Below are positions 7,552 to 53,984 of a stretch of DNA of 64,000 nt, piece after piece. The DNA is from an uncultured Candidatus Saccharibacteria bacterium. Lineage in GTDB: Bacteria > Patescibacteriota > WWE3 > UBA101185 > UBA10185. The stretch spans positions 5,514 to 69,513 of the forward strand of contig CAYLVW010000001.1 of NCBI GenBank assembly GCA_964387275.1. The letters run 5' to 3'. A program made the translations under genes and the position numbers. Numbering within the stretch: the stretch's first letter is position 1; each line of letters opens with the position of its first letter. Below the pieces are notes generated by a model. It was not told where the DNA came from and did no database searches. It saw only the letters and a list, made by a program, of their open reading frames with translations.

Positions 7552-8949
7552 TTATGCCGCTTCGCTATCAGCAATGTATTTTTTGATCAATCTCCTAGCC
7601 TTGGGGCTTTTTACAAGCTCAAGCCAGTCTTTACTGGGTCTTGCTCTGGGATTTGTCAGAACTTCTACGACATCCCCATCTTTGAGTTCTTGGGAAAGTT
7701 TTGCAATTTTACCGTTGATCAGCGCGCTGATGCATTTGTAGCCGATATCTTCGTGTACTGCAAAAGCAAAATCAATAATAATAGCACCTACAGGAAGTTC
7801 TATTATTTTTCCTTTTGGCGTAAAAACATACACTTTGTTTTTAAAAGTTGAAATCTCTGTATTTTCAGCTTTGGTTAAAGACTTTACATTTAATTGTTTT
7901 AATAAATCGGGTGATGAATTAAGGTATTTTTTTAAATGCTCGCCAATCTTATAGAAAGCATGGCTTGCCTTACCATATTCATTTTCTTCATGCATATCTT
8001 TAGTTTTAATTTGAATTTCTAGGTAAAAATCTTCTGAAGCCTTATATATATTGTGAATAGATCTATATCCGGTCATACGAGGCTCTTTAATAAAGTCATC
8101 TCTTGAATCCGAAAGCGTATCCCAGATATTATTTAGCATGTCCTCTACTAAGTAGCACTCATCTATCGAATCTACAATAATTGCCATGGCCGCAATATCG
8201 TATATATGCTCCAGAGATCTTCCTACTCCGTTGTACTTAACCTCTTTTTTATAAATTGAATATGTGTGCTTAATTCTTTTTAGGATTATAGGATCTTTTA
8301 CATTATTTTCAGCAAGTATTGCTCTGATAAACGCTTCTGTGTCTCTAAATAAATTCTCAATCGCAGGTTTTTTGCTTGCTACAAAATACGAAATATCCGA
8401 ATACTTTTGAGGGTTTAATACTTTAAAAGCGTTATCCTCAAGTATTCTTGAGTAAGAACTAAGACCAAGCAAATGACATACAGGGCTATATAAAGTAAGT
8501 ATTCTCTGTGCTCTACCTAGTCTTATATCCTCAGGAAGAGAGAATAAGGACTGTGCATCTTCGACCTTATCAGCAAGTCTTACAAGTAGCAATCTAATAT
8601 CTTGAGCAATGTTTAGATACGTTTGTATTATGTAACCTGTGTTTACAACTTCTTCTGACATCATTCTGACTTGGTGATTCCTAAGTTCGTCATATCTTCT
8701 AACCAGATCATATATATCCTGCCCAAGTTCATTAACTATTTGTTTTTTATATTCTTCTGTTTCTAAGGGAACAAAATGATGGAGTATAGCAAGAATTAAT
8801 GTTTCTTCATCCTTTACACCTATTTTTACCAAGTTACTTAAAACTTTTTCCACATGTTCGTACAAAGCAGCTCCTGAGAGTCTTTTTTTATCTTTATATA
8901 TTTTTTGAGCTATTTGTTTTGCTCTAAGTAATCTGTTTTTTTCTTCCAT
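7552..8949 (-). CDS. rel: Short bifunctional Rel/SpoT-type (p)ppGpp synthetase/hydrolase (HD + RelA/SpoT synthetase + TGS domains, no ACT domain)
   Basis: HD motif (LILAILHHF..). The synthetase domain carries YRSIHNIY and EIQIKTKDMHEENEYGKASHAFYK. A C-terminal TGS-like segment (VYVFTPKGKIIELPVGAIIIDFAFAVH) is present. Confidence 0.85.
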   Translation of the reverse strand: MEEKNRLLRAKQIAQKIYKDKKRLSGAALYEHVEKVLSNLVKIGVKDEETLILAILHHFVPLETEEYKKQIVNELGQDIYDLVRRYDELRNHQVRMMSEEVVNTGYIIQTYLNIAQDIRLLLVRLADKVEDAQSLFSLPEDIRLGRAQRILTLYSPVCHLLGLSSYSRILEDNAFKVLNPQKYSDISYFVASKKPAIENLFRDTEAFIRAILAENNVKDPIILKRIKHTYSIYKKEVKYNGVGRSLEHIYDIAAMAIIVDSIDECYLVEDMLNNIWDTLSDSRDDFIKEPRMTGYRSIHNIYKASEDFYLEIQIKTKDMHEENEYGKASHAFYKIGEHLKKYLNSSPDLLKQLNVKSLTKAENTEISTFKNKVYVFTPKGKIIELPVGAIIIDFAFAVHEDIGYKCISALINGKIAKLSQELKDGDVVEVLTNPRARPSKDWLELVKSPKARRLIKKYIADSEAA

Positions 8950-35719: not shown

Positions 35720-35843
35720 ATATTGATTCTATCAACAAAATCAATAACACAATAGGCATTTACTCAAATCACTACAGGTTATATCTATTCTTGTTAGGCT
35801 TGTGTGGGGTTGTGTTTTTTTTGAATTGATATATTATCCTACT

Positions 35844-36107
35844 ATGTCAATTCTGGATAAGTTAAAAAATCTATTTGCATCTAAATTCCAACCAACATCT
35901 ACTGTGGTGGATATGCACGAATGTTCTTGTTGTAATGGGTGTTGCTCAGAAGATCAAGAAAAATCTTGCAACTGCGAAAACGAATGTCAATGCGATCAAA
36001 ATTCTGAAAACAACAAAGACAACGATTCCTGCGAATGCGGTGGCAACTGTGGGTGTTCTACTTCTTCCGACAGCAATGAGTGTGCATGTGGGCACTGTGG
36101 TAAATAA
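35844..36107 (+). CDS. Cys-rich metallothionein-like small protein (87 aa, 17 Cys plus His)
   Basis: CSCCNGCCSEDQEKSCNCENECQCDQ...CECGGNCGCSTSSDSNECACGHCGK. Starts at internal ATG 35844; the longer ORF from 35802 has no better support. Confidence 0.55.
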   Translation: MSILDKLKNLFASKFQPTSTVVDMHECSCCNGCCSEDQEKSCNCENECQCDQNSENNKDNDSCECGGNCGCSTSSDSNECACGHCGK

Positions 36108-36337: not shown

Positions 36338-36411
36338 TGGGGAGTCGTCTAATGGTAGGACATTGCACTCTGGATGCAAGAATTGAGGTTCGAATCCTTG
36401 CTCCCCAGCCA
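36338..36411 (+). tRNA. tRNA-Gln (anticodon CTG), CCA encoded
   Basis: Manual cloverleaf: acceptor TGGGGAG/CTCCCCA, anticodon stem TTGCA/TGCAA with loop CTCTGGA, T-loop TTCGAAT. Confidence 0.85.
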
Positions 36412-36533
36412 TGAAGAACTTAAGATACATAGATCCAGGTACCTATATAGATATGATATTCAATATGGGTAGTTGAAAATCAATATTATAAGTGCTATAA
36501 GGTTATTAAAGATACTCTTAGATAAAAAAGCAT

Positions 36534-37148
36534 ATGACCGAATATCCATACATGGTGTCTAATACTAAAATAGGACCTATTTTTGAAAAGCTTAAAAGTG
36601 CAGAAGTCCCACAGAGGTTTACCCTCGATATATTAAGAAAACTTGGCTTTACAAGTACTAATGATCGAGCATTCATTCCATTAATTAAGAAAATGGGGTT
36701 CTTAACAGCAGATGGAACACCAACATCTCATTATAACCAATTAAGGGATATATCTCAGTTTAAAGTTGTTTTGGCTGAACGAATTAAAGAAACATACTCG
36801 GATTTATTCTCAATTAATACACGTATGGATAAGGCTTCCGACGCTGAAATAAAAGGCGCTATATCAAGAGTTACTGGGAAGGATGCCGAAAATGTAAATA
36901 GATACTTCGCCACTTTTAAAGCTTTGCTGTCACTAGCTGATTTTGATACAAAAAATATGCCAGTTGCAGTTATTAAAAGTGACATTGAAACTTACCGAGA
37001 ACACGAAAACGAGATTAAAACACCTGTAGTCAATCAAGAATTAGTAACATTTCACTATAATATTCAAATTCACCTTCCACTTACCACAGATATTAATATC
37101 TATAATGCAATATTCAAAAGTATAAAAGACAACCTATTAGATAAATGA
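36534..37148 (+). CDS. Hypothetical protein (204 aa), upstream partner of the HEPN protein
   Basis: Its stop overlaps the next gene's start by 4 nt (ATGA). No catalytic motif was recognised. Confidence 0.5.
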   Translation: MTEYPYMVSNTKIGPIFEKLKSAEVPQRFTLDILRKLGFTSTNDRAFIPLIKKMGFLTADGTPTSHYNQLRDISQFKVVLAERIKETYSDLFSINTRMDKASDAEIKGAISRVTGKDAENVNRYFATFKALLSLADFDTKNMPVAVIKSDIETYREHENEIKTPVVNQELVTFHYNIQIHLPLTTDINIYNAIFKSIKDNLLDK

Positions 37149-37723
37149 GGACTATTAAGCATTTAAAAAAACTAGTCTTGGATGGAATGCTAGTACAATC
37201 CGTAGTTGACAAATATACTACTGAAGGTACATTGAGAAAGAATACAGGTATACAAAAACCATCCATTTCCTTAGAAGAATTCTCTTTTAGCCCAAAAATT
37301 ACTGCTACAGCCAACAAAATGTCCGAAGTATATATTGCATTTTATTGTTTCGAGAATCTTGTAAGGGATCTAATAATTGATCGATTGTCTGAACGCCATG
37401 GGAATGAGTGGTGGAAAAATTGTGTACCTGAGAAAGTTAAACTTCGGGTGGAAGATCTAAAAAGTAAAGAAAGCAAAAACAAATATTTATCGCCTAGAGC
37501 AAGTACTAATATAGGGTATACAATGTTAGGTGACTTGGCCTCTATCATTATAACTAGATGGGATGATTTCTCAGACATTTTACCAAATCAAGCTTGGGTA
37601 ACCTCCCGACTGAACGATTTAGAAATGTCTCGTAATATCATTATGCACTCTGGTATTTTACCTGATGATGAGATTGATAGAATTAAAACATCTCTAAGAG
37701 ATTGGGTAGAGCAGGTTGGTTAA
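37145..37723 (+). CDS. HEPN-domain protein (Rx4H motif; tentatively Swt1-like HEPN), putative RNase toxin/effector
   Basis: C-terminal ...SRNIIMHSG... gives R-x4-H. Predicted all-alpha, about 190 aa, translationally coupled to the upstream gene. Confidence 0.55.
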   Translation: MRTIKHLKKLVLDGMLVQSVVDKYTTEGTLRKNTGIQKPSISLEEFSFSPKITATANKMSEVYIAFYCFENLVRDLIIDRLSERHGNEWWKNCVPEKVKLRVEDLKSKESKNKYLSPRASTNIGYTMLGDLASIIITRWDDFSDILPNQAWVTSRLNDLEMSRNIIMHSGILPDDEIDRIKTSLRDWVEQVG

Positions 37724-37820
37724 GTGTAAGCAGTTCTTAATCATGCATGTAGTGATGTTTGTGCTAAGAGCACTCACTTATCTTGCTCTCCAGCCATGAA
37801 GAACTTAGTTTATACTTATT

Positions 37821-38363
37821 GTGAAGATGATAAAAATAAAAACTAAACCTCTATTGCTTCTCCTTATACTACTTATCACTTTAATAACCGGAGTACTTTA
37901 TTTGGAGTATTCGTATCAGAACTGCAAAAAACAAATTGCTAGTACATTTTTAAAAAGTAATAGCGGAGTCAGTTGCTATGAGCTTAGTAAACTTGTTGAG
38001 AAAGAGAAGTTTGCTGTTTCTGATTCATATCCAAATATCTACGAAGTAGAGAGGCGTTTAATTGGTTTGAATAATGGTATTACTTGCAGTAGGGTTGGGT
38101 ATGTTGCCTCAGATTTACCTAAATATGCAAAAGAGTACGTTATTTTGCACGAGTATCTTCATACACAGGGAAACTATTCTGAAACATCTGTGAACTTTCA
38201 GTCTGGTATTGAGAAACCTCTAGGTTTACTACAGACTGTGTGGATTTCTGTGAGCCCCAATTTCTCAAAAGATTTTTTTAACGTCTGTTCTATAGGGCGT
38301 TTGTGGAAAGTGTTTAAAGTTTATTTCATGTTTGATAGTTTTGAAGACCTCGCTAAGATATAA
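37821..38363 (+). CDS. Small secreted protein with an HExxH motif (putative Zn-metallopeptidase-like)
   Basis: Signal peptide and ILHEYLHTQG. Confidence 0.4.
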   Translation: MKMIKIKTKPLLLLLILLITLITGVLYLEYSYQNCKKQIASTFLKSNSGVSCYELSKLVEKEKFAVSDSYPNIYEVERRLIGLNNGITCSRVGYVASDLPKYAKEYVILHEYLHTQGNYSETSVNFQSGIEKPLGLLQTVWISVSPNFSKDFFNVCSIGRLWKVFKVYFMFDSFEDLAKI

Positions 38364-38526
38364 GTTTTATATGACTAATGATTCCGCTTGGTTTAAGGTA
38401 CAATGATATATTGGCCTTATTATTTGATTTATCATTTCTTAATACCAACAGAAAGGTGTTTTTGATTGTAGTCTCTAGCACACTAATATTAGTGCAAATC
38501 GTTTCTTCTATATGTAATATAATAGT

Positions 38527-39777
38527 ATGTCCAAATATATTAGTGGTGGTTTTGAAGGCTTTTTAACCAATGAAACCCCGTATCAATTCATAGAGCAGCC
38601 AAAACGGGAAGTATTGTATCTTACATCTGATTTTTTAACCTCTATAAATCGTAACCACCACTTCAAAGTTTCCTCGGAGGGCGTATCAGGGCATTTAGAA
38701 GCAGCTTTGGAGAATGGTAATTTGAGTGATTTGGTAACTGCTACCACACAGTTAGTAAATAAAGTATTAGAGGAATCTCTAACCGGTGATCCGATCACAT
38801 CGTTAGTATTTCTTGATAAATCGGCTAGAAATGGAGCATTTCTTTTTTACACTATGTGGGATGGTTTACAGCAGCGGGGAGAAATACCCCAAGGAGTCGC
38901 TCGTCCAGATATAAGATATATGAACGTTGGGAGATTTCATGATGAGAAGCATTCTTCTCAAGGACCCGTTGCCCTATTTAAAGATCAGTTTACCTTAATT
39001 CCCGAGGGAATGTCTCCCCATGTGTTAGTGGTAGATGAGTATATAGAATCTGGTGGTACTGCACGACGAGCACAGAAATTGTTGATGGATGCTTTTGGTA
39101 TCAAAGCTGACGCTATTTCCATGTTTTCTACTGTACCTATATGGTATGGTACTTCCGATATCGGGTTGTTGGGGGTTAAAGATCCTAAACATGAAGATTT
39201 CTGGAGCACAACGGAACTGGGGAAGTCGTTAAGTGGGTTACCTGCAAAGACATTATTGTCAGCTAAGCATATATTGGACAGATTCGATGGTACTGGGTTT
39301 GAGGAGATTTTTGGAACAGTCTACATAAAGGATAAGGTAGAAAGGAGCAGTGTCGATGATATTCGCAAGGCTTTAGAAGACAAGGGTTTAGACGTAGCTG
39401 TAGAAGACATTTTAGAGCTTCTGTCTATAGCACACACTGAGGGTATGGGAATAGTTAATATATATGAATTAGTTCAGTATTTAGAATCAGCTGGTGGTTA
39501 CTTTGCTGTTCCTACCAGTAGCGAATATGATAGGCAAAATTTTATTGCCTACAGGACAATTTTAAAAAGTATCATTCAGTCCTATTTGATTTTTAGAGAT
39601 ATTGATAGAGCTGATCCCGAAAGAACTACTGTATTGAGTGATAGTTATTCGAAATCTAGGCAAGGAAGCGTGTATCAGTCCACTAGGGATAGGGAGGATG
39701 ACACGAGACCTAGTGGGTATATATCGCAAGATAATAGTAATGCTTTAGAATATCATAAATCCAAAATGCACCCTTAG
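38527..39777 (+). CDS. Phosphoribosyltransferase (PRTase)-domain protein with N- and C-terminal extensions of unknown function
   Basis: PRPP-binding signature VLVVDEYIESGGTARRA (hydrophobic-D-E/D-x-x-x-S/T-G-x-T). Locally GC-richer. Confidence 0.55.
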   Translation: MSKYISGGFEGFLTNETPYQFIEQPKREVLYLTSDFLTSINRNHHFKVSSEGVSGHLEAALENGNLSDLVTATTQLVNKVLEESLTGDPITSLVFLDKSARNGAFLFYTMWDGLQQRGEIPQGVARPDIRYMNVGRFHDEKHSSQGPVALFKDQFTLIPEGMSPHVLVVDEYIESGGTARRAQKLLMDAFGIKADAISMFSTVPIWYGTSDIGLLGVKDPKHEDFWSTTELGKSLSGLPAKTLLSAKHILDRFDGTGFEEIFGTVYIKDKVERSSVDDIRKALEDKGLDVAVEDILELLSIAHTEGMGIVNIYELVQYLESAGGYFAVPTSSEYDRQNFIAYRTILKSIIQSYLIFRDIDRADPERTTVLSDSYSKSRQGSVYQSTRDREDDTRPSGYISQDNSNALEYHKSKMHP

Positions 39778-39839
39778 AATTGATTTTACACTTGAACATC
39801 CTATGAGCAACATGCTATAAAAACTCCACAGGAGAAACA

Positions 39840-40043
39840 ATGAGGCAAATCATCTACGATGGTAGGTATCCTACTAACATTTCTTCCCTTACATTCAAAA
39901 AATGGCTTGCCGAAACTCTAAATGTTAACCCAGAATCCCTTGGTCAATACCAAATACTTGGGTTAGATAACAACCAGATCAAAGGTACCTTGTATCCTGG
40001 TTCAACTGTTTTTATTAAGGGTGGCGCAAAGGAAGAAGATTAA
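39840..40043 (+). CDS. ThiS/MoaD-like ubiquitin-like beta-grasp mini-protein ending in ..FIKGG followed by a 5-aa extension (AKEED)
   Basis: Size and pattern M.QIIYDG...ILGLDNNQIKG..LYPGSTVFIKGG+AKEED are compatible with a ThiS/MoaD fold whose GG needs exposure by a protease. Confidence 0.4.
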   Translation: MRQIIYDGRYPTNISSLTFKKWLAETLNVNPESLGQYQILGLDNNQIKGTLYPGSTVFIKGGAKEED

Positions 40044-40087
40044 GTACTGTCTCGAAGGCTCAGAAATTAGTAAAATATTTTCTGAGC

Positions 40088-40537
40088 TTATTTTTTGGGT
40101 TCATTATGGCTCACGGCTTCAGGACTCTTCTTGTTAAAGTGGGGAATCATAGGTATTAGTGTTATAGCTAGAGTTGCAATAATACCTATTGTATGGAAAT
40201 TAAATCCGTAAGCCATTCCTATTGCGCCTGCAGCCCACACATTAGCTGCTGTTGTGAGATTTCGTACGTTTACCCCTTCTTTAATAATTAGACCTGCTCC
40301 AAGAAATCCGATACCGGATACTATTTGTGCTGCTATTCGTGATTCAGAGGCTGGATCTACCATAGAGGACATAAATGTATAAAGCATCGCTCCGGTTATA
40401 ACAAGGGTATGGGTACTTATTCCAGCATCTTTGCCCCTAGATTCTCTTTCAGCTCCTATGATGGTTCCTGATATAAGACTTAATATAAGGTCAATAATTA
40501 GATTTGTTTCATTTTGTCCTATTATTTGATTAATCAT
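40088..40537 (-). CDS. MgtC/SapB family membrane protein
   Basis: N-terminal block LIIDLILSLISGTIIGAERE and 4–5 TM helices. Confidence 0.7.
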   Translation of the reverse strand: MINQIIGQNETNLIIDLILSLISGTIIGAERESRGKDAGISTHTLVITGAMLYTFMSSMVDPASESRIAAQIVSGIGFLGAGLIIKEGVNVRNLTTAANVWAAGAIGMAYGFNFHTIGIIATLAITLIPMIPHFNKKSPEAVSHNEPKK

Positions 40538-41152
40538 TTTCTGATTTTATCAGAAAGGTGTTTTTGTTTTGAAGGTATTTTGTATAATTATTTAATGACA
40601 CTTCTTGTTTTCCTCAGCTTTGTTTCGTTTTTTGGGTATATTTTTACAAATAGAAGAAAGTCTAGGTATTCTTTTAAAACCTTTTTAGATAGTTACATAA
40701 ATGTGATGCCGGTTTTTGTTATTCCCTATGTGCTTTTATATCCGTTAGTGGTTTATTCGTACCTATCTCTTAGTGGTATTACACTTGATTTGTATTTAAT
40801 TGCAATTTTTCTAGCTAATATTATTGCTACAGTTTTTTGGTATTTGTTTCCAAATGGGGTGGTAAGAGGTAGGTTAAATGGTAGTTCTATTTTTTCGAGA
40901 GTAATTAACTACATTTATAGTGTGGATGGTGATACTAATGGTTTTCCTTCGGGGCATGTTTTTTTAAGCGTAATTTCTTGCTACTTTTTGTATGCGTCCT
41001 CAAATAATTTGTTATATATAGTTTTGGCTTTACTTATTTCTGTATCAACAGTTTTTACAAAGCAACATTATGTGGTGGATATTATTGGAGGACTAGTAGT
41101 AGCTGGTATTTCTATTGCAGGTTCAGGAATACTTATGAGCCATTTTAGTTAG
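40514..41152 (+). CDS. PAP2-superfamily membrane phosphatase
   Basis: PSGH motif and SxxxH..D-like motif (KQHYVVDIIGG). Confidence 0.65.
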   Translation: MSYYLINHFLILSERCFCFEGILYNYLMTLLVFLSFVSFFGYIFTNRRKSRYSFKTFLDSYINVMPVFVIPYVLLYPLVVYSYLSLSGITLDLYLIAIFLANIIATVFWYLFPNGVVRGRLNGSSIFSRVINYIYSVDGDTNGFPSGHVFLSVISCYFLYASSNNLLYIVLALLISVSTVFTKQHYVVDIIGGLVVAGISIAGSGILMSHFS

Positions 41153-48461: not shown

Positions 48462-49763
48462 ATGCATAGCGGAGATATTACAATTGAAAATATTACAAAA
48501 ATAGAAGGCAATGCAGGTCTAAAAGTTACTGTAAGAGAAGGTAGGGTTACAGATTTAAAATTTATTATTTCTGACTATAGAAGATTTTATACGGAAGCTG
48601 TTAAAGGCAAGCCATTTATTACCGCCCCTGCTTTCTTATCAAGAATCTGTGGTACCTGTTCTGTCGCTCATTTATTTGCTTCACTTGAAGCTGTTGAGAA
48701 GTCTCAAGGTATTGAGCTTTCTGAGCAGACCAAGGTATTACGCAGACTTGCGTACGATGGTTTAATGATTCGAGACCACGCTCTACATCTGTATTTTTTT
48801 GTGTTACCAGATATATTAGGAATTGATTCAATACTAGATATACCAGATGATCACGATAACTTAGGCCATACCCTACTTCATGACTCTTTTGATATAAAAA
48901 AACTTGGTACTGAAATCACAGACGTTGTTATTGGTGCTGCAATTCATGCTCCATTTCCAACTGTTGGTGGTTTCTTAAAACTTCCTGATCCTACAAAGTT
49001 TTCTGACCTAATAGCTAAGCTTGAAAAGATAAGGCCACAAGTAATAAGAGGTATAAAGGTTTTTTATGAATGGAAAATCAATCTAACCAGAAACTCTGAC
49101 TACTTAGCTTTAAGGAATGATAAAAGTTTTGATTTTATAGATGGTTGGGTAGTAAACACGAACGGCAAAAAAGTTCCTGAAGAGAATTTTCATGATTTTT
49201 TGAAATCTGTTGTCATACCTTATACTCAGGCTGAGGGGTATGTTTTTTCAGATGGACACCAAGATTATTTGGTTGGTGCTTTAGCTAGGTTAAATTTTAA
49301 CAAAGATTTATTAAATCCTAGAACCAAAAAAGATGTAGAGCAGTATTTAGATGTATTTCCTTCAAATAATGTTCACCACAATAACTTGGCTCAAGCAATA
49401 GAGATTTTACAATGTGTTGACGAGGCTATAGATATTTTAAAGAATCTAAGTATTCAACCAGAAAAACCACAGAGACCTAAAGTAAAAGCGGGGGTTGGCG
49501 TTGGCGTAATTGAAGCTCCTAGGGGAATTTTGTACCATATGGCTAAGGTAGATGATCAGGGGATTATAATTGATTATGATGTCATTGTGCCTACAGCTCA
49601 GAATCAAATAAATATCGAAAACGACTTGAAGAAGTACTTTAATGAGAATTTAGATAAAGATGAGGTAACTTTAAAACTTGAAGCCGAGAAGATAATTAGA
49701 GCCTATGATCCATGTATGTCTTGCGCTACTAATTTTCTTAAAATAGATTGGACATATTTGTAA
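48462..49763 (+). CDS. [NiFe]-hydrogenase large subunit
   Basis: L1 motif RICGTCSVAH. The L2 motif reads DPCMSCATN (Asn in place of the usual His/Arg) followed by a 9-aa tail. Confidence 0.8.
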   Translation: MHSGDITIENITKIEGNAGLKVTVREGRVTDLKFIISDYRRFYTEAVKGKPFITAPAFLSRICGTCSVAHLFASLEAVEKSQGIELSEQTKVLRRLAYDGLMIRDHALHLYFFVLPDILGIDSILDIPDDHDNLGHTLLHDSFDIKKLGTEITDVVIGAAIHAPFPTVGGFLKLPDPTKFSDLIAKLEKIRPQVIRGIKVFYEWKINLTRNSDYLALRNDKSFDFIDGWVVNTNGKKVPEENFHDFLKSVVIPYTQAEGYVFSDGHQDYLVGALARLNFNKDLLNPRTKKDVEQYLDVFPSNNVHHNNLAQAIEILQCVDEAIDILKNLSIQPEKPQRPKVKAGVGVGVIEAPRGILYHMAKVDDQGIIIDYDVIVPTAQNQINIENDLKKYFNENLDKDEVTLKLEAEKIIRAYDPCMSCATNFLKIDWTYL

Positions 49764-51390: not shown

Positions 51391-52248
51391 CTAAATGTAT
51401 GTACTAAATAATCCTTTCAAATTTGATAAATTAACTTCCTGTTCTACCAGAGGTTTGACAGAAAGCTGGGGCAGCTGAGACTCATAGGGGAGTTTTTCTT
51501 CTTTATAGATAATACCAAGAGGAATTGTTTTCAAACCAAATTCAAGAGCTTTAGCAAATGCTTTTTCCTTATTTGTAGGATCATAATCATCCGGTAGATA
51601 GTAAGTATTATCTTGATAGAATTTATGATTGTGCTCATGATTAAATGTAGGGCATGGCTGCAATACATCCACAATAGCAAGTCCTTTATGAGCATTTGCC
51701 TGTGTAATAAGGTCTGCTAGTTTCTGAATATTTACAGCATATTCTCTTGCCACAAAAGTTGCACCTGCTGCAATTGCCATTGCCAATGGATTTAGTGGGT
51801 AATCGTGATTTCCCTCTGGAGTTGATTTAGATTTAAATCCATGTTCTGAGGCTGGCGATGTTTGTCCTGTTGTTAGAGCGTACAAACCATTATCGTGGAG
51901 AATAATTGTCATGTCATGATTTCTTCTTGAAGCGTGTATGAAATGATTCCCTCCTTCTGCTAGTGAATCCCCATCGCCTGTAAATACGAAAACATTTAAT
52001 CTGTGGTTTGCCATTTTTATGCCGGACGCTACTGGTAGAGCCCTACCATGAAGACCCTCGAATGAGTTTAGTTTAGTAAAGTTGACTATGTGACCGTGGC
52101 AACCAATACCAGCGACAATTACTGTATTATTGTTATTCCAGTCATTTGTTACAGCAGCATTTTTAAATGCAGCCCATATTGCCAAATTTCCGCATCCGGG
52201 GCACCAGTTTGGCTGACATGAGGTTGTTAGTTCATTTAGTTTAGTCAT
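51391..52248 (-). CDS. porB: 2-oxoacid (pyruvate):ferredoxin oxidoreductase beta subunit (TPP-binding)
   Basis: CPGCG and GDGD TPP motifs. Overlaps the upstream gene by 4 nt. Confidence 0.85.
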   Translation of the reverse strand: MTKLNELTTSCQPNWCPGCGNLAIWAAFKNAAVTNDWNNNNTVIVAGIGCHGHIVNFTKLNSFEGLHGRALPVASGIKMANHRLNVFVFTGDGDSLAEGGNHFIHASRRNHDMTIILHDNGLYALTTGQTSPASEHGFKSKSTPEGNHDYPLNPLAMAIAAGATFVAREYAVNIQKLADLITQANAHKGLAIVDVLQPCPTFNHEHNHKFYQDNTYYLPDDYDPTNKEKAFAKALEFGLKTIPLGIIYKEEKLPYESQLPQLSVKPLVEQEVNLSNLKGLFSTYI

Positions 52249-53984
52249 TTAATCTCCTTAAAGTGAGTTGATATCTTTTCTTCAAGTTCTTCAACATAAA
52301 AGGGTCTTCCATCAAATTTTAACCATTTGTTTTTTATATCTATTCCTGTTTTTTCTTTAATTAGACCTGTTAGCTGGCCTGAATAGTTACATTCAACACT
52401 TACCACGTTCTTAGATTTGCTTAATATATTTATTAAATGTTCTGCCGGGAATGGGTTCATCCAAGTAACATGCACATAGTTAACATCAGTAAACTTTGCA
52501 ATAGCTTCTAAAATACTACCTTTATTACTGCCCCAAGACACTATTGTAAGTTTTGCATCTTTTGGTCCGTAGACTGTAGGTGCTTGCATATCTTCTTTTT
52601 CACAGGTTAGAAGTTTTGCCATCCTTTTATTCATTTGATTATTTCTGTTATCAATTTCTTCTGACGAAAGACCATACTCGTCATGTTCATCAGAGTTTGC
52701 CACAAAAAAATTACCTGTTCCCGGAATTGATCTCGTAGAAATTCCTGTTGAACTTAGTTCGTACCTTTTAAAATTTTCAACTTGCTTAGTGGTAAATTTT
52801 CCTTTATCTATTCTGTAACCCTCTACGTTGAAAATTGGGGTACTTTGGTCATTGTCACAGATGTTTTTATCTATTAGTAAAACTACAGGTGTTTGATATT
52901 TATCTGCATAGTGAAATGCCTCCATTGTCAGATAAAAAGCTTCAATAGCGTCTCCAGCTGCAAGAACAATTCTTGGAAAATCACCTTGATGTGCATGTAG
53001 GACGAATCTTAAATCTCCCTGCTCGCTCCATGTAGGGATTCCTGTCGCAGGGGCACCCCTCATCCCCTCAACAATTACTAATGGTGTTTCTGTCATTCCT
53101 GCAAGGCCATAGCCTTCCGCCATTAGACTAAATCCACCTCCAGAACTAGCAGTCATTGATCTAACACCTGCATAAGAGGCGCCTATTGCCATTGTTATTG
53201 CTGAGATCTCATCTTCAGGTTGTTTATATATGTAGCCAAACTTTTCTTGATGCGTTGCAAGTGTATGTAGTATGTTTGAAATTGGAGACATTGGGTATAT
53301 AGAGGCAAACTGAAGACCTGCTGCTATTGCTCCCATTGCAACAGCCTCATCACCGTTTACAACCATTTTAGGAGTAGGGTTTTTCATAGGCACGATTATT
53401 TCTTTCACCTCTTTTTTATACGTTTTATTTACATAATCATGGCCATTTTTTGCTGCGGTAATGTTGGCATTAATAATTTCTTCACTTTTTTTTGCAAACT
53501 CTTCTTTTAGTAACTCACAAAGTACTTCTATATTTCCCCCAAGCAGGGCAACTGTAGCTCCGAGTGCAACTGTGTTACTAAGTAGATCTTTACCTCCCGC
53601 TTCTTGTGCAATTTGCGAGAGGGGGATCTCTATTTTTAGAATGTTACTTGGTAGTTTATCTGTAGTTAGTTTCTTTCCAGAATCATATAGTACCAGGGCT
53701 TGGCTTGATAATTCTGAGATATGAAGATCTATTGTATCCTGATTTAGAGCCACTAGAATGTCTGTTTTATTTCTAGGACCTACAACCGGATCTTTTGAGA
53801 TATTTATTTGCATAATATTGTGACCGCCTCTGATTAATGATGGGTACTCTATGTAGTTATATATGTTATATCCAGATCTTGTGGCTGTTTTTGACAGTAA
53901 GAGTCCTGCAGATTTAATTCCTTGTCCGGCTTGTCCTCCGATACGTATTGAGCATACTTTTTGTTGGGCATTTACATCGGGCAT
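52245..53984 (-). CDS. porA: 2-oxoacid:ferredoxin oxidoreductase, fused gamma-alpha subunit
   Basis: N-terminal gamma domain (IRIGGQAGQGIKSAG) followed by an alpha domain (NGDEAVAMGAIAAG...YPMSPIS). Confidence 0.8.
   Translation of the reverse strand: MPDVNAQQKVCSIRIGGQAGQGIKSAGLLLSKTATRSGYNIYNYIEYPSLIRGGHNIMQINISKDPVVGPRNKTDILVALNQDTIDLHISELSSQALVLYDSGKKLTTDKLPSNILKIEIPLSQIAQEAGGKDLLSNTVALGATVALLGGNIEVLCELLKEEFAKKSEEIINANITAAKNGHDYVNKTYKKEVKEIIVPMKNPTPKMVVNGDEAVAMGAIAAGLQFASIYPMSPISNILHTLATHQEKFGYIYKQPEDEISAITMAIGASYAGVRSMTASSGGGFSLMAEGYGLAGMTETPLVIVEGMRGAPATGIPTWSEQGDLRFVLHAHQGDFPRIVLAAGDAIEAFYLTMEAFHYADKYQTPVVLLIDKNICDNDQSTPIFNVEGYRIDKGKFTTKQVENFKRYELSSTGISTRSIPGTGNFFVANSDEHDEYGLSSEEIDNRNNQMNKRMAKLLTCEKEDMQAPTVYGPKDAKLTIVSWGSNKGSILEAIAKFTDVNYVHVTWMNPFPAEHLINILSKSKNVVSVECNYSGQLTGLIKEKTGIDIKNKWLKFDGRPFYVEELEEKISTHFKEIK

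Follow-up and report, generated by a model that had tools for sequence, protein, structure and literature searches.

A divergent phosphoribosyltransferase-like protein and an adjacent 67-aa orphan reading frame in a Patescibacteria contig

Does a gene for a phosphoribosyltransferase (PRTase)-like protein act together with the small open reading frame (ORF) that follows it, whose product ends in Gly-Gly and a short tail, or are the two only neighbours? The locus lies in a 64,000-nt stretch of DNA (the window) from contig CAYLVW010000001.1, positions 5,514 to 69,513 of the forward strand, assembly GCA_964387275.1, of an uncultured Candidatus Saccharibacteria bacterium (GTDB lineage Patescibacteriota; WWE3; UBA101185; UBA10185). 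Coordinates below are those of the window. A preliminary description of this DNA, made from the letters alone, had noted a 416-aa protein with a phosphoribosyl pyrophosphate (PRPP)-binding loop and, about 60 bp downstream, a 67-aa ORF taken to be a ThiS/MoaD/ubiquitin-like partner. Both ORFs are as described. The loop VLVVDEYIESGGTARRA forms residues 166–182 of the larger protein, and the small ORF, which ends in FIKGG followed by AKEED, is found on the same strand after a gap of 62 nt. The two genes, taken from the ORF list, are:

38527 to 39777, + strand: PRTase-like gene, 416 aa
39840 to 40043, + strand: small orphan ORF, 67 aa, C-terminus FIKGG-AKEED

The reading considered likely is that these are two unrelated genes, one for a stand-alone divergent PRTase that probably functions in purine salvage, an activity drawn from its motifs and relatives, and the other a lineage-specific orphan. 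A pairing of a PRTase with a ubiquitin-like protein, if true, would be a new kind of modifier system; it does not hold.

The PRTase-like core and its family

A word-indexed search of 5.8 billion proteins found three relatives of the 416-aa protein, with 33–35 % identity, and one more was added with a profile. The near-orphan appearance in this search is an artefact of fast divergence. It was overturned by an exhaustive HMMER search with a profile of four sequences against 1.84 billion cluster representatives, in which the family is represented by 569, 234 and 64 clusters at expect values (E) of ≤1e-3, ≤1e-10 and ≤1e-30, respectively. Nearly all matches are 230–420 aa long, and the typical family size is about 330–400 aa.

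An alignment of 51 family members was used for conservation counts, for a profile and for modeling with AlphaFold2 (AF2). The Pfam family Pribosyltran (PF00156) is matched by 41 of the 51 members (E≤0.1; best 2.2e-9) and the Pfam UPRTase model by 12, with P0064 above the Pfam gathering score, 28.4 vs 26.3 (one further member among those checked). Against PDB sequences, the alignment profile has as its top matches 4trb (Sulfolobus GpT-1, E 3.4e-7), 7kl6 (4.3e-6) and 4z1o (GpT-2, 6.9e-6); after the purine PRTases come PyrR, PRPP synthetase, APRT and HGPRT. These alignments span the second core strand, the PRPP loop and then a P-x-W-Y motif. With hhalign the PRPP loop is also aligned to those of E. 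coli Gpt and Apt, the Gpt alignment consisting of residues 127–181. Because so many relatives match PF00156, and because the profile finds the purine PRTases in PDB at such values, the match at the PRPP loop is beyond chance at the family level. The 416-aa protein has no PF00156 match of its own while its relatives do; thus its membership rests on the family profile and not on this sequence alone. We conclude that a genuine type I PRTase core, of XGPRT/GpT type and strongly diverged, is present in the protein. Its parts, with the basis of each, are:

38527 to 38712, + strand: family-specific N-terminal region, aa 1–62, beta-hairpin and helices (family alignment, AF2)
38713 to 39192, + strand: divergent type I PRTase core, aa 63–222 (PF00156 in relatives, profile against PDB, Foldseek)
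38809 to 38829, + strand: FLDKSAR motif, putative pyrophosphate (PPi) loop, right after the first core strand (family alignment, position)
39022 to 39072, + strand: PRPP-binding loop, aa 166–182 (aligned to the loops of Sulfolobus GpT-1 and GpT-2, PyrR, and E. coli Gpt and Apt)
39136 to 39147, + strand: P-x-W-Y motif, candidate base-stacking site (alignment columns; aligned to lPkWY / IPDYY of Sulfolobus purine PRTases)
39193 to 39612, + strand: family-specific all-helical C-terminal domain, aa 223–362 (family alignment, AF2)
39613 to 39774, + strand: acidic, polar tail of 54 aa, unique to the 416-aa protein (family alignment, AF2)

The PRPP motif, consisting of four hydrophobic residues, two acidic residues, any two residues and S/T-G-x-S/T, is present as VLVVDEYIESGGT at aa 166–178. 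In the acidic pair, D170 is found in all 51 sequences and E171 in 46, the remainder having D. The columns of the 5′-phosphate loop are similarly conserved (S/T175 in 46, G176 in 50 and S/T178 in 49 of the 51). D97 and R101 are also invariant, S99 is present in 50 sequences, and the D97-x-S99-x-R101 triad directly follows strand 92–96 of the AF2 model. The FLDKSAR motif resembles the D-S-R-G-F PPi loop of APRT, and from this likeness and its position it would be the PPi loop of the family. In the P-x-W-Y motif, P204, W206 and Y207 are conserved in 48, 50 and 44 sequences. An aromatic motif is thereby present behind the next strand after the PRPP loop; it pairs with IPDYY / IPDFY of 4trb and 4z1o, and may be the functional equivalent of the base-stacking residue of purine PRTases. 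Further conserved columns are G216 (48/51), G323 (49/51) and R343 (48/51).

Compared with XGPRT and the archaeal GpT enzymes (4trb, 4z1o, E. coli Gpt), the family has in common the PRPP loop, with its hydrophobic strand, acidic pair and S/T-G-x-S/T, the order of the surrounding strands, and the aromatic motif after the next strand, which is P-x-W-Y here and I-P-D-Y-Y there. However the XGPRT/GpT enzymes are about 150–210 aa in length, and the family described here is longer by about 60 residues at the N-terminus and about 140 at the C-terminus, which have conserved motifs of their own, SAGGF and YR. The similarity extends over only about 90 residues, and there is no significant match of the whole structure. 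Other known PRTase-type proteins differ as well. ComFC has an N-terminal four-Cys zinc finger, whereas the 416-aa protein has no Cys and no ComF chain is found among the PDB profile matches; PurR has a helix-turn-helix (HTH), which the 416-aa protein does not have; and PyrR is basic and RNA-binding, whereas the family is not basic. The protein is thus not a canonical ComF, PyrR, HPRT or APRT, and the earlier statement that it is unlike housekeeping PRTases is supported. The same is true of the statement that the PRPP loop is embedded between two unknown regions: the type I PRTase-like core is genuine, and no known family is found N- or C-terminal to it.

The AF2 model of the 416-aa protein, made with the 51-member alignment, is confident, with a predicted local distance difference test score (pLDDT) of 88.7 and a predicted template modeling score (pTM) of 0.85. 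It shows a core of alternating strand-helix elements at residues about 90–200, an N-terminal hairpin and helices ahead of the core, and an all-helical C-terminal domain behind it. The sequence of the N-terminal region is poorly conserved. The C-terminal domain displays the motifs (S/T)-A-G-G-(F/Y) at aa 321–325 (nt 39487–39501) and Y342-R343, and has no Pfam or PDB match. The 54-aa tail is found in none of the aligned relatives, and the model has a pLDDT <55 from about residue 381. Ten longer family members contain no informative fused domains. A phmmer search of PDB sequences with the 416-aa protein gave chance-level matches only; one calmodulin-like match, to residues 247–336, was discarded (E 0.5). 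Neither a curated family nor a solved structure spans the full length of this conserved architecture. In the literature, no relevant description of a Patescibacteria PRTase family, nor of PDB entry 7kl6, was found.

In a set with one genome for each GTDB species, a pattern scan revealed 34 loci that carry the family. The record titles are mostly of Patescibacteria lineages (WWE3, Woesebacteria, Saccharibacteria/Saccharimonadales, Uhrbacteria). Sequence comparison places the 416-aa protein in an unannotated PRTase-like family that is found mainly in metagenome-assembled genomes (MAGs) of Patescibacteria, the candidate phyla radiation (CPR). The gene thus stands for a few hundred sequence clusters that lack a Pfam, NCBIfam or PDB representative of the full architecture.

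Two observations on individual records should be added. Nine loci (L006, L008, L011, L013, L015, L021, L027, L033 and L037) are from records titled Gammaproteobacteria or Pseudomonadales MAGs, among them one with the isolate name HK-STAS-PATE-17 and one 839-kb contig. These titles look doubtful, or else the family extends beyond Patescibacteria. Separately, the homologue at 7788–8882 of locus L007, from a 905-kb contig of a Woesebacteria MAG, has a single in-frame TAG (EQDKKG, the stop, then PIDILVFLDKSARN) and is conserved in full length on either side of it. The TAG could be a sequencing error, a mark of a very recent pseudogene, or a site of read-through.

Salvage enzyme, sensor or another PRPP-linked activity

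The neighbourhoods of the three closest relatives are mutually unrelated. A census of two genes on each side at 31 family loci shows housekeeping neighbours: Mur ligase (6), GroES (4) and tRNA-guanine transglycosylase (3), and in addition aminoacyl-tRNA synthetases, EF-G/Tu-type GTPases, RF-1, RNR, topoisomerase and GatB. No E1, JAB, ThiS or defence gene and no recurrent partner is found beside family members at these loci. Nor do the window neighbours of the PRTase-like gene (a 180-aa ORF, mgtC, PAP2 and HxlR) recur near any PRTase relative. As the family is found in housekeeping neighbourhoods and is without a conserved partner, it is atypical in sequence only, and not as part of a conjugation-like system.

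The data show that the protein belongs to the family, that the motifs are conserved and that the genomic surroundings are of housekeeping type; catalysis, substrate and the function of the added domains are inferred from there. The protein would transfer ribose-5-phosphate from Mg-PRPP to a nucleobase, most likely a purine, and this transfer would serve nucleotide salvage in organisms that are unable to make nucleotides de novo. The helical C-terminal domain may be a hood or lid over the core, or else an oligomerisation or regulatory module. De novo nucleotide synthesis is lacking in Patescibacteria (PMC10633639). An active PRPP-dependent salvage enzyme is favoured because the PRPP motifs are kept, a motif with aromatic residues occupies the base-stacking position, the mean pI of the family is 6.5 (acidic to neutral), and Patescibacteria do not have the de novo route. 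If purine or other base salvage is the true function, the family fills a gap in metabolic reconstructions of Patescibacteria and would be readily accessible to biochemical characterisation; if not, the extra domain, being conserved, points to a PRPP-linked function of unknown kind.

Several results weigh against this reading. Even with a threshold of E≤1, none of Pfam, NCBIfam, PADLOC and PHROGs yields a match for the 416-aa protein itself. In a Foldseek search of PDB with its model, there were no matches at E≤1e-3, and the best PRTase structure, E. coli HPRT 1g9t, is a weak match (probability 0.87, 133 columns, E 0.46, target TM 0.43). Sequence matches to known PRTases are limited to about residues 127–214. 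The segment of the proposed PPi loop is outside of every alignment to known PRTases, whether by PDB profile or by hhalign to Gpt and Apt. The catalytic Asp of 6-oxopurine PRTases (D137 in human HGPRT) precedes the T/S-G of the PRPP loop by two residues. The equivalent position 174 is variable in the family, with S in 15, E in 10, A in 6 and D in 6 of the 51 sequences, among others. Regulators of the PyrR type are also among the PDB matches of the profile. In addition, no nucleotide-metabolism operon surrounds family members at the 31 loci, and no riboswitch is found ahead of the PRTase-like gene, where Rfam yields only the tRNA upstream. The leader of the gene folds no better than shuffled sequences.

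Since the catalytic-Asp position is not conserved and PyrR-like regulators score, a real rival is that the protein has no catalytic role and instead senses PRPP or a nucleotide, or regulates, in the manner of PyrR or PurR; the PRPP loop would then be a ligand site and the helical domains output modules. PyrR and PurR chains have E values of 7.7e-4 to 0.3 in the profile search, and the large conserved helical domains on either side of the core do not look catalytic. However this explanation is considered unlikely. The top profile matches are enzymes, and the PPi-loop-like residues, which are important chiefly for chemistry, are conserved. Domain scans of the window protein and its relatives revealed no HTH or RNA-binding domain, the mean pI argues against a nucleic-acid-binding regulator, and there is no conserved neighbouring operon that could be a target. 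Also judged unlikely is that, in place of classical salvage, the family has a PRPP-dependent enzymatic or sensing function whose acceptor or mode of regulation is new and is set by the conserved helical domain with its SAGGF and YR motifs. Such a protein might function in lineage-specific nucleotide acquisition or PRPP homeostasis of host-dependent, ultra-small bacteria. That the PRTase-like protein, whatever its reaction, additionally acts on the adjacent GG-bearing mini-protein in this genome has a close to negligible probability. The divergent salvage PRTase thus remains the preferred reading of the larger gene.

The 67-aa open reading frame

Is the small ORF a gene? Signals around it are as follows:

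39792 to 39797 and 39816 to 39821, + strand: promoter candidate, TTGAAC and TATAAA with an 18-nt spacer (by eye; promoter scan without a report)
39830 to 39834, + strand: AGGAG, Shine-Dalgarno-like motif, 5 nt ahead of the ATG of the small ORF (sequence reading)
40058 to 40097, + strand: terminator-like hairpin, GCTCAGAAA / TTTCTGAGC, 9 bp with a 12-nt loop, then the T-run TTATTTTTT (sequence reading)

The hairpin separates the small ORF from the convergently oriented mgtC gene, and was missed by the terminator scan because the loop limit of the scan is 8 nt. The codon-usage log-odds of the ORF is 0.284, compared with 0.263±0.094 for in-frame windows of long genes and −0.07±0.12 for off-frame windows. 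This score is at the 59th percentile of the in-frame windows and exceeds all 3000 off-frame windows. Going by codon usage, the AGGAG motif and the terminator, the ORF is probably a real, translated protein-coding gene. A different view is that it is untranslated, and that 39778–40087 represents only the 3′ untranslated region and terminator region of the PRTase-like gene; short orphan ORFs are often spurious, and this one has no homologues. However its gene-typical codon score is attained by no more than 5 % of spurious small ORFs, the AGGAG motif is at optimal spacing, and 310 nt would be a long stretch to be non-coding in a genome as compact as this one. This view is thus regarded as quite unlikely.

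The search for relatives of the 67-aa protein was negative throughout. Among the 5.8 billion proteins it matches only itself, and no relatives were detected in JGI metagenome contigs. A tblastn search of 38 loci encoding PRTase relatives did not reveal a counterpart, and no comparable downstream ORF is present there. The co-occurrence of the two genes across related genomes, proposed earlier as a check, is thus not found, and with the small ORF absent from these loci and no conserved partner gene in its place, the pairing with the PRTase-like protein is not borne out. The possibility that the ORF is a split-off domain of longer family members was also rejected, as it shows no similarity to any of 152 family proteins.

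The likeness to ThiS, MoaD and ubiquitin fared no better. No Pfam family, including ThiS, ubiquitin and Urm1, is matched at E≤1, no PADLOC family at E≤1, and no PDB chain at E≤10 with phmmer; a match to phrog_4535 (E 0.025) was taken as noise. BLASTP and hhalign comparisons with exemplar sequences of ubiquitin, NEDD8, ThiS and MoaD gave scores below those of shuffled sequences. A single-sequence AF2 model (pLDDT 74.6, pTM 0.54) displays the order beta-(beta)-alpha-beta-beta-beta. Among PDB structures, Foldseek ranks first the half-modules, of beta-alpha-beta-beta-beta order, that make up glyoxalase, FosB and bleomycin-resistance proteins, though not at a significant level (E about 0.2 at a probability of about 0.8). 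Of the many PDB chains with a ubiquitin fold a single one was matched, the ubiquitin-like (Ubl) domain of parkin, with a probability of 0.15 and a root-mean-square deviation (rmsd) of 11.8. A BFVD structure search yielded nothing, and no Ubl, ThiS or MoaD fold was identified. Thus the small ORF is not conserved and a beta-grasp was not recognised in it, the two outcomes that the preliminary description had itself named as refuting its reading, with the residual doubt that comes from a single-sequence model of moderate confidence.

The C-terminus does have a Gly-Gly followed by a tail (FIKGG-AKEED). Uncommon but not rare, a GG among the 10 C-terminal residues is found in 2 of 258 window ORFs and in 3 of 152 and 6 of 126 other proteins, i.e., about 1–5 %. 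At this base rate one case is unremarkable in a genome scan, and the GG and tail of the 67-aa ORF are coincidental. The general caution is that a "GG plus tail" C-terminus on an orphan mini-ORF is no evidence of a ubiquitin-like protein.

ThiS/MoaD/ubiquitin-like beta-grasp modifiers partner with E1 (ThiF/MoeB) and JAMM proteins, and include those of bacterial Ubl defence operons. The 67-aa ORF is similar to them only in its small size and in the GG near its C-terminus, and differs in sequence and fold, in its lack of conservation, and in the absence of E1 and JAB from the scanned window genes. A Pfam scan of 37 window proteins, including those of roughly 32.2–45.7 kb, found no ThiF/E1, no JAB or JAMM and no ThiS, in agreement with the earlier remark that no E1 or JAB gene is adjacent. 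Could the locus still be an atypical modifier or sulfur-carrier system, in which a beta-grasp protein has its GG exposed by removal of AKEED and acts with the PRTase, perhaps with an upstream HExxH membrane protein as the protease? The low frequency of such C-termini, a secondary-structure order compatible with a small beta-grasp, two genes 62 nt apart on the same strand, and the upstream 180-aa ORF with HEYLH are in line with such a system. However no homologue of the small ORF was found anywhere searched, the 38 relative loci included, the 180-aa ORF is near no other family member, and the small ORF possibly has a promoter of its own. With the sequence comparisons below shuffles, the glyoxalase-like structural matches and the missing E1 and JAB, this proposal is highly improbable, and it is largely refuted by non-conservation. 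The small ORF is probably a lineage-specific orphan, functionally unconnected to the PRTase and possibly transcribed from its own promoter.

The tRNA-Gln cassette and other genes of the window

The preliminary description placed the two genes right next to a tRNA-Gln island. The features concerned are:

36338 to 36411: tRNA-Gln(CTG) (ARAGORN)
37821 to 38363, + strand: 180-aa ORF with a hydrophobic, membrane-anchor-like N-terminus and HEYLH (HExxH) at aa 110–114 (nt 38148–38162)

A 26-nt direct repeat with one mismatch is found at 36397–36422, where it comprises the last 15 nt of the tRNA and 11 nt beyond, and again at 37782–37807; no repeats of this length are expected by chance. The two copies bracket exactly a DUF5343 gene (36534–37148) and a Swt1-like HEPN gene (37145–37723), which are the PADLOC candidate pair PDC-M34A/B (E 1.8e-67 and 1.1e-65). 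As the repeats enclose only these two genes, the island is a 1.4-kb cassette without an integrase, and the PRTase-like gene is outside of it. The cassette, 36397–37807, looks like a minimal tRNA-integrated island. Thus the tRNA-Gln is present where the earlier statement had it, while "next to the island" is imprecise, since the island closes at 37807, 720 nt and one gene ahead of the PRTase-like gene.

The repeats bear on another explanation, in which a mobile or defence island at the tRNA-Gln carries the PRTase-like gene and the small ORF as cargo, e.g., a PRTase-type abortive-infection effector with a small partner. A candidate defence pair does lie between the tRNA and the PRTase-like gene, 0.8–2 kb upstream of the latter, and a relic 5′ copy of mgtC ahead of the gene suggests a past rearrangement of the PRTase/small-ORF/mgtC block. 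However PDC-M34 forms a separate repeat-bounded cassette of two genes that includes neither the PRTase-like gene nor the small ORF, and the att-like repeat that closes it speaks against island membership of the PRTase-like gene, which was rejected on this ground. Neither protein has a PADLOC match or a credited PHROG match, the relatives are found among core housekeeping genes, and the GC content shows no sharp discontinuity. The cargo explanation is thus very unlikely, and two unrelated genes outside of the island remains the preferred reading.

The relic mgtC copy is part of a second, imperfect direct repeat of 57 nt (79 % identity), at 38411–38467 and 40513–40569, with a 16-nt exact core that is found only at these two sites. 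The copy at 40513–40569 corresponds, in minus-strand direction, to the 5′ end of mgtC together with sequence ahead of it (MINQIIGQ); that at 38411–38467, ahead of the PRTase-like gene, is a decayed duplicate (MINQIIRP). An old rearrangement or duplication scar around the PRTase-like gene, small ORF and mgtC is thereby suggested, and the analysis suggests that it has no evident functional meaning.

With respect to gene starts, the PRTase-like gene has no Shine-Dalgarno motif, and TATAAT (38518–38523) is 3 nt ahead of its ATG. The PAP2 gene (start 40595) has TGTATAAT immediately ahead of its ATG, at about 40583–40590. Both transcripts may be leaderless. Shine-Dalgarno-like 4–5-mers are present in only about 10 of 49 long window ORFs.

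Searches of Pfam, PADLOC, PHROG and PDB gave nothing for the 180-aa ORF, which is near no PRTase relative; from its sequence features it may be an orphan membrane metalloprotease-like protein. Other scanned window proteins include RelA/SpoT, a GT2 glycosyltransferase, DsbD-thioredoxin, ABC ATPases, a PD-(D/E)XK nuclease, polyprenyl synthase, VanW, NYN, MgtC, PAP2, HxlR and ApbE. At 48462–49763 and 51391–53984 are a NiFe-hydrogenase large-subunit-like gene and a two-subunit 2-oxoacid:ferredoxin oxidoreductase, found with DUF6390 and DUF2298; this hydrogenase/oxidoreductase gene content is fermentative and Patescibacteria-like. Together with the relatives of the PRTase-like gene, the genes of the window suggest a Patescibacteria genome. 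Just upstream of the tRNA-Gln, a 101-aa ORF (35802–36107, + strand) encodes an extremely Cys-rich, metallothionein-like protein in which the segments CSCCNGCC, CNCENECQC, CECGGNCGC and CACGHCGK follow one another.

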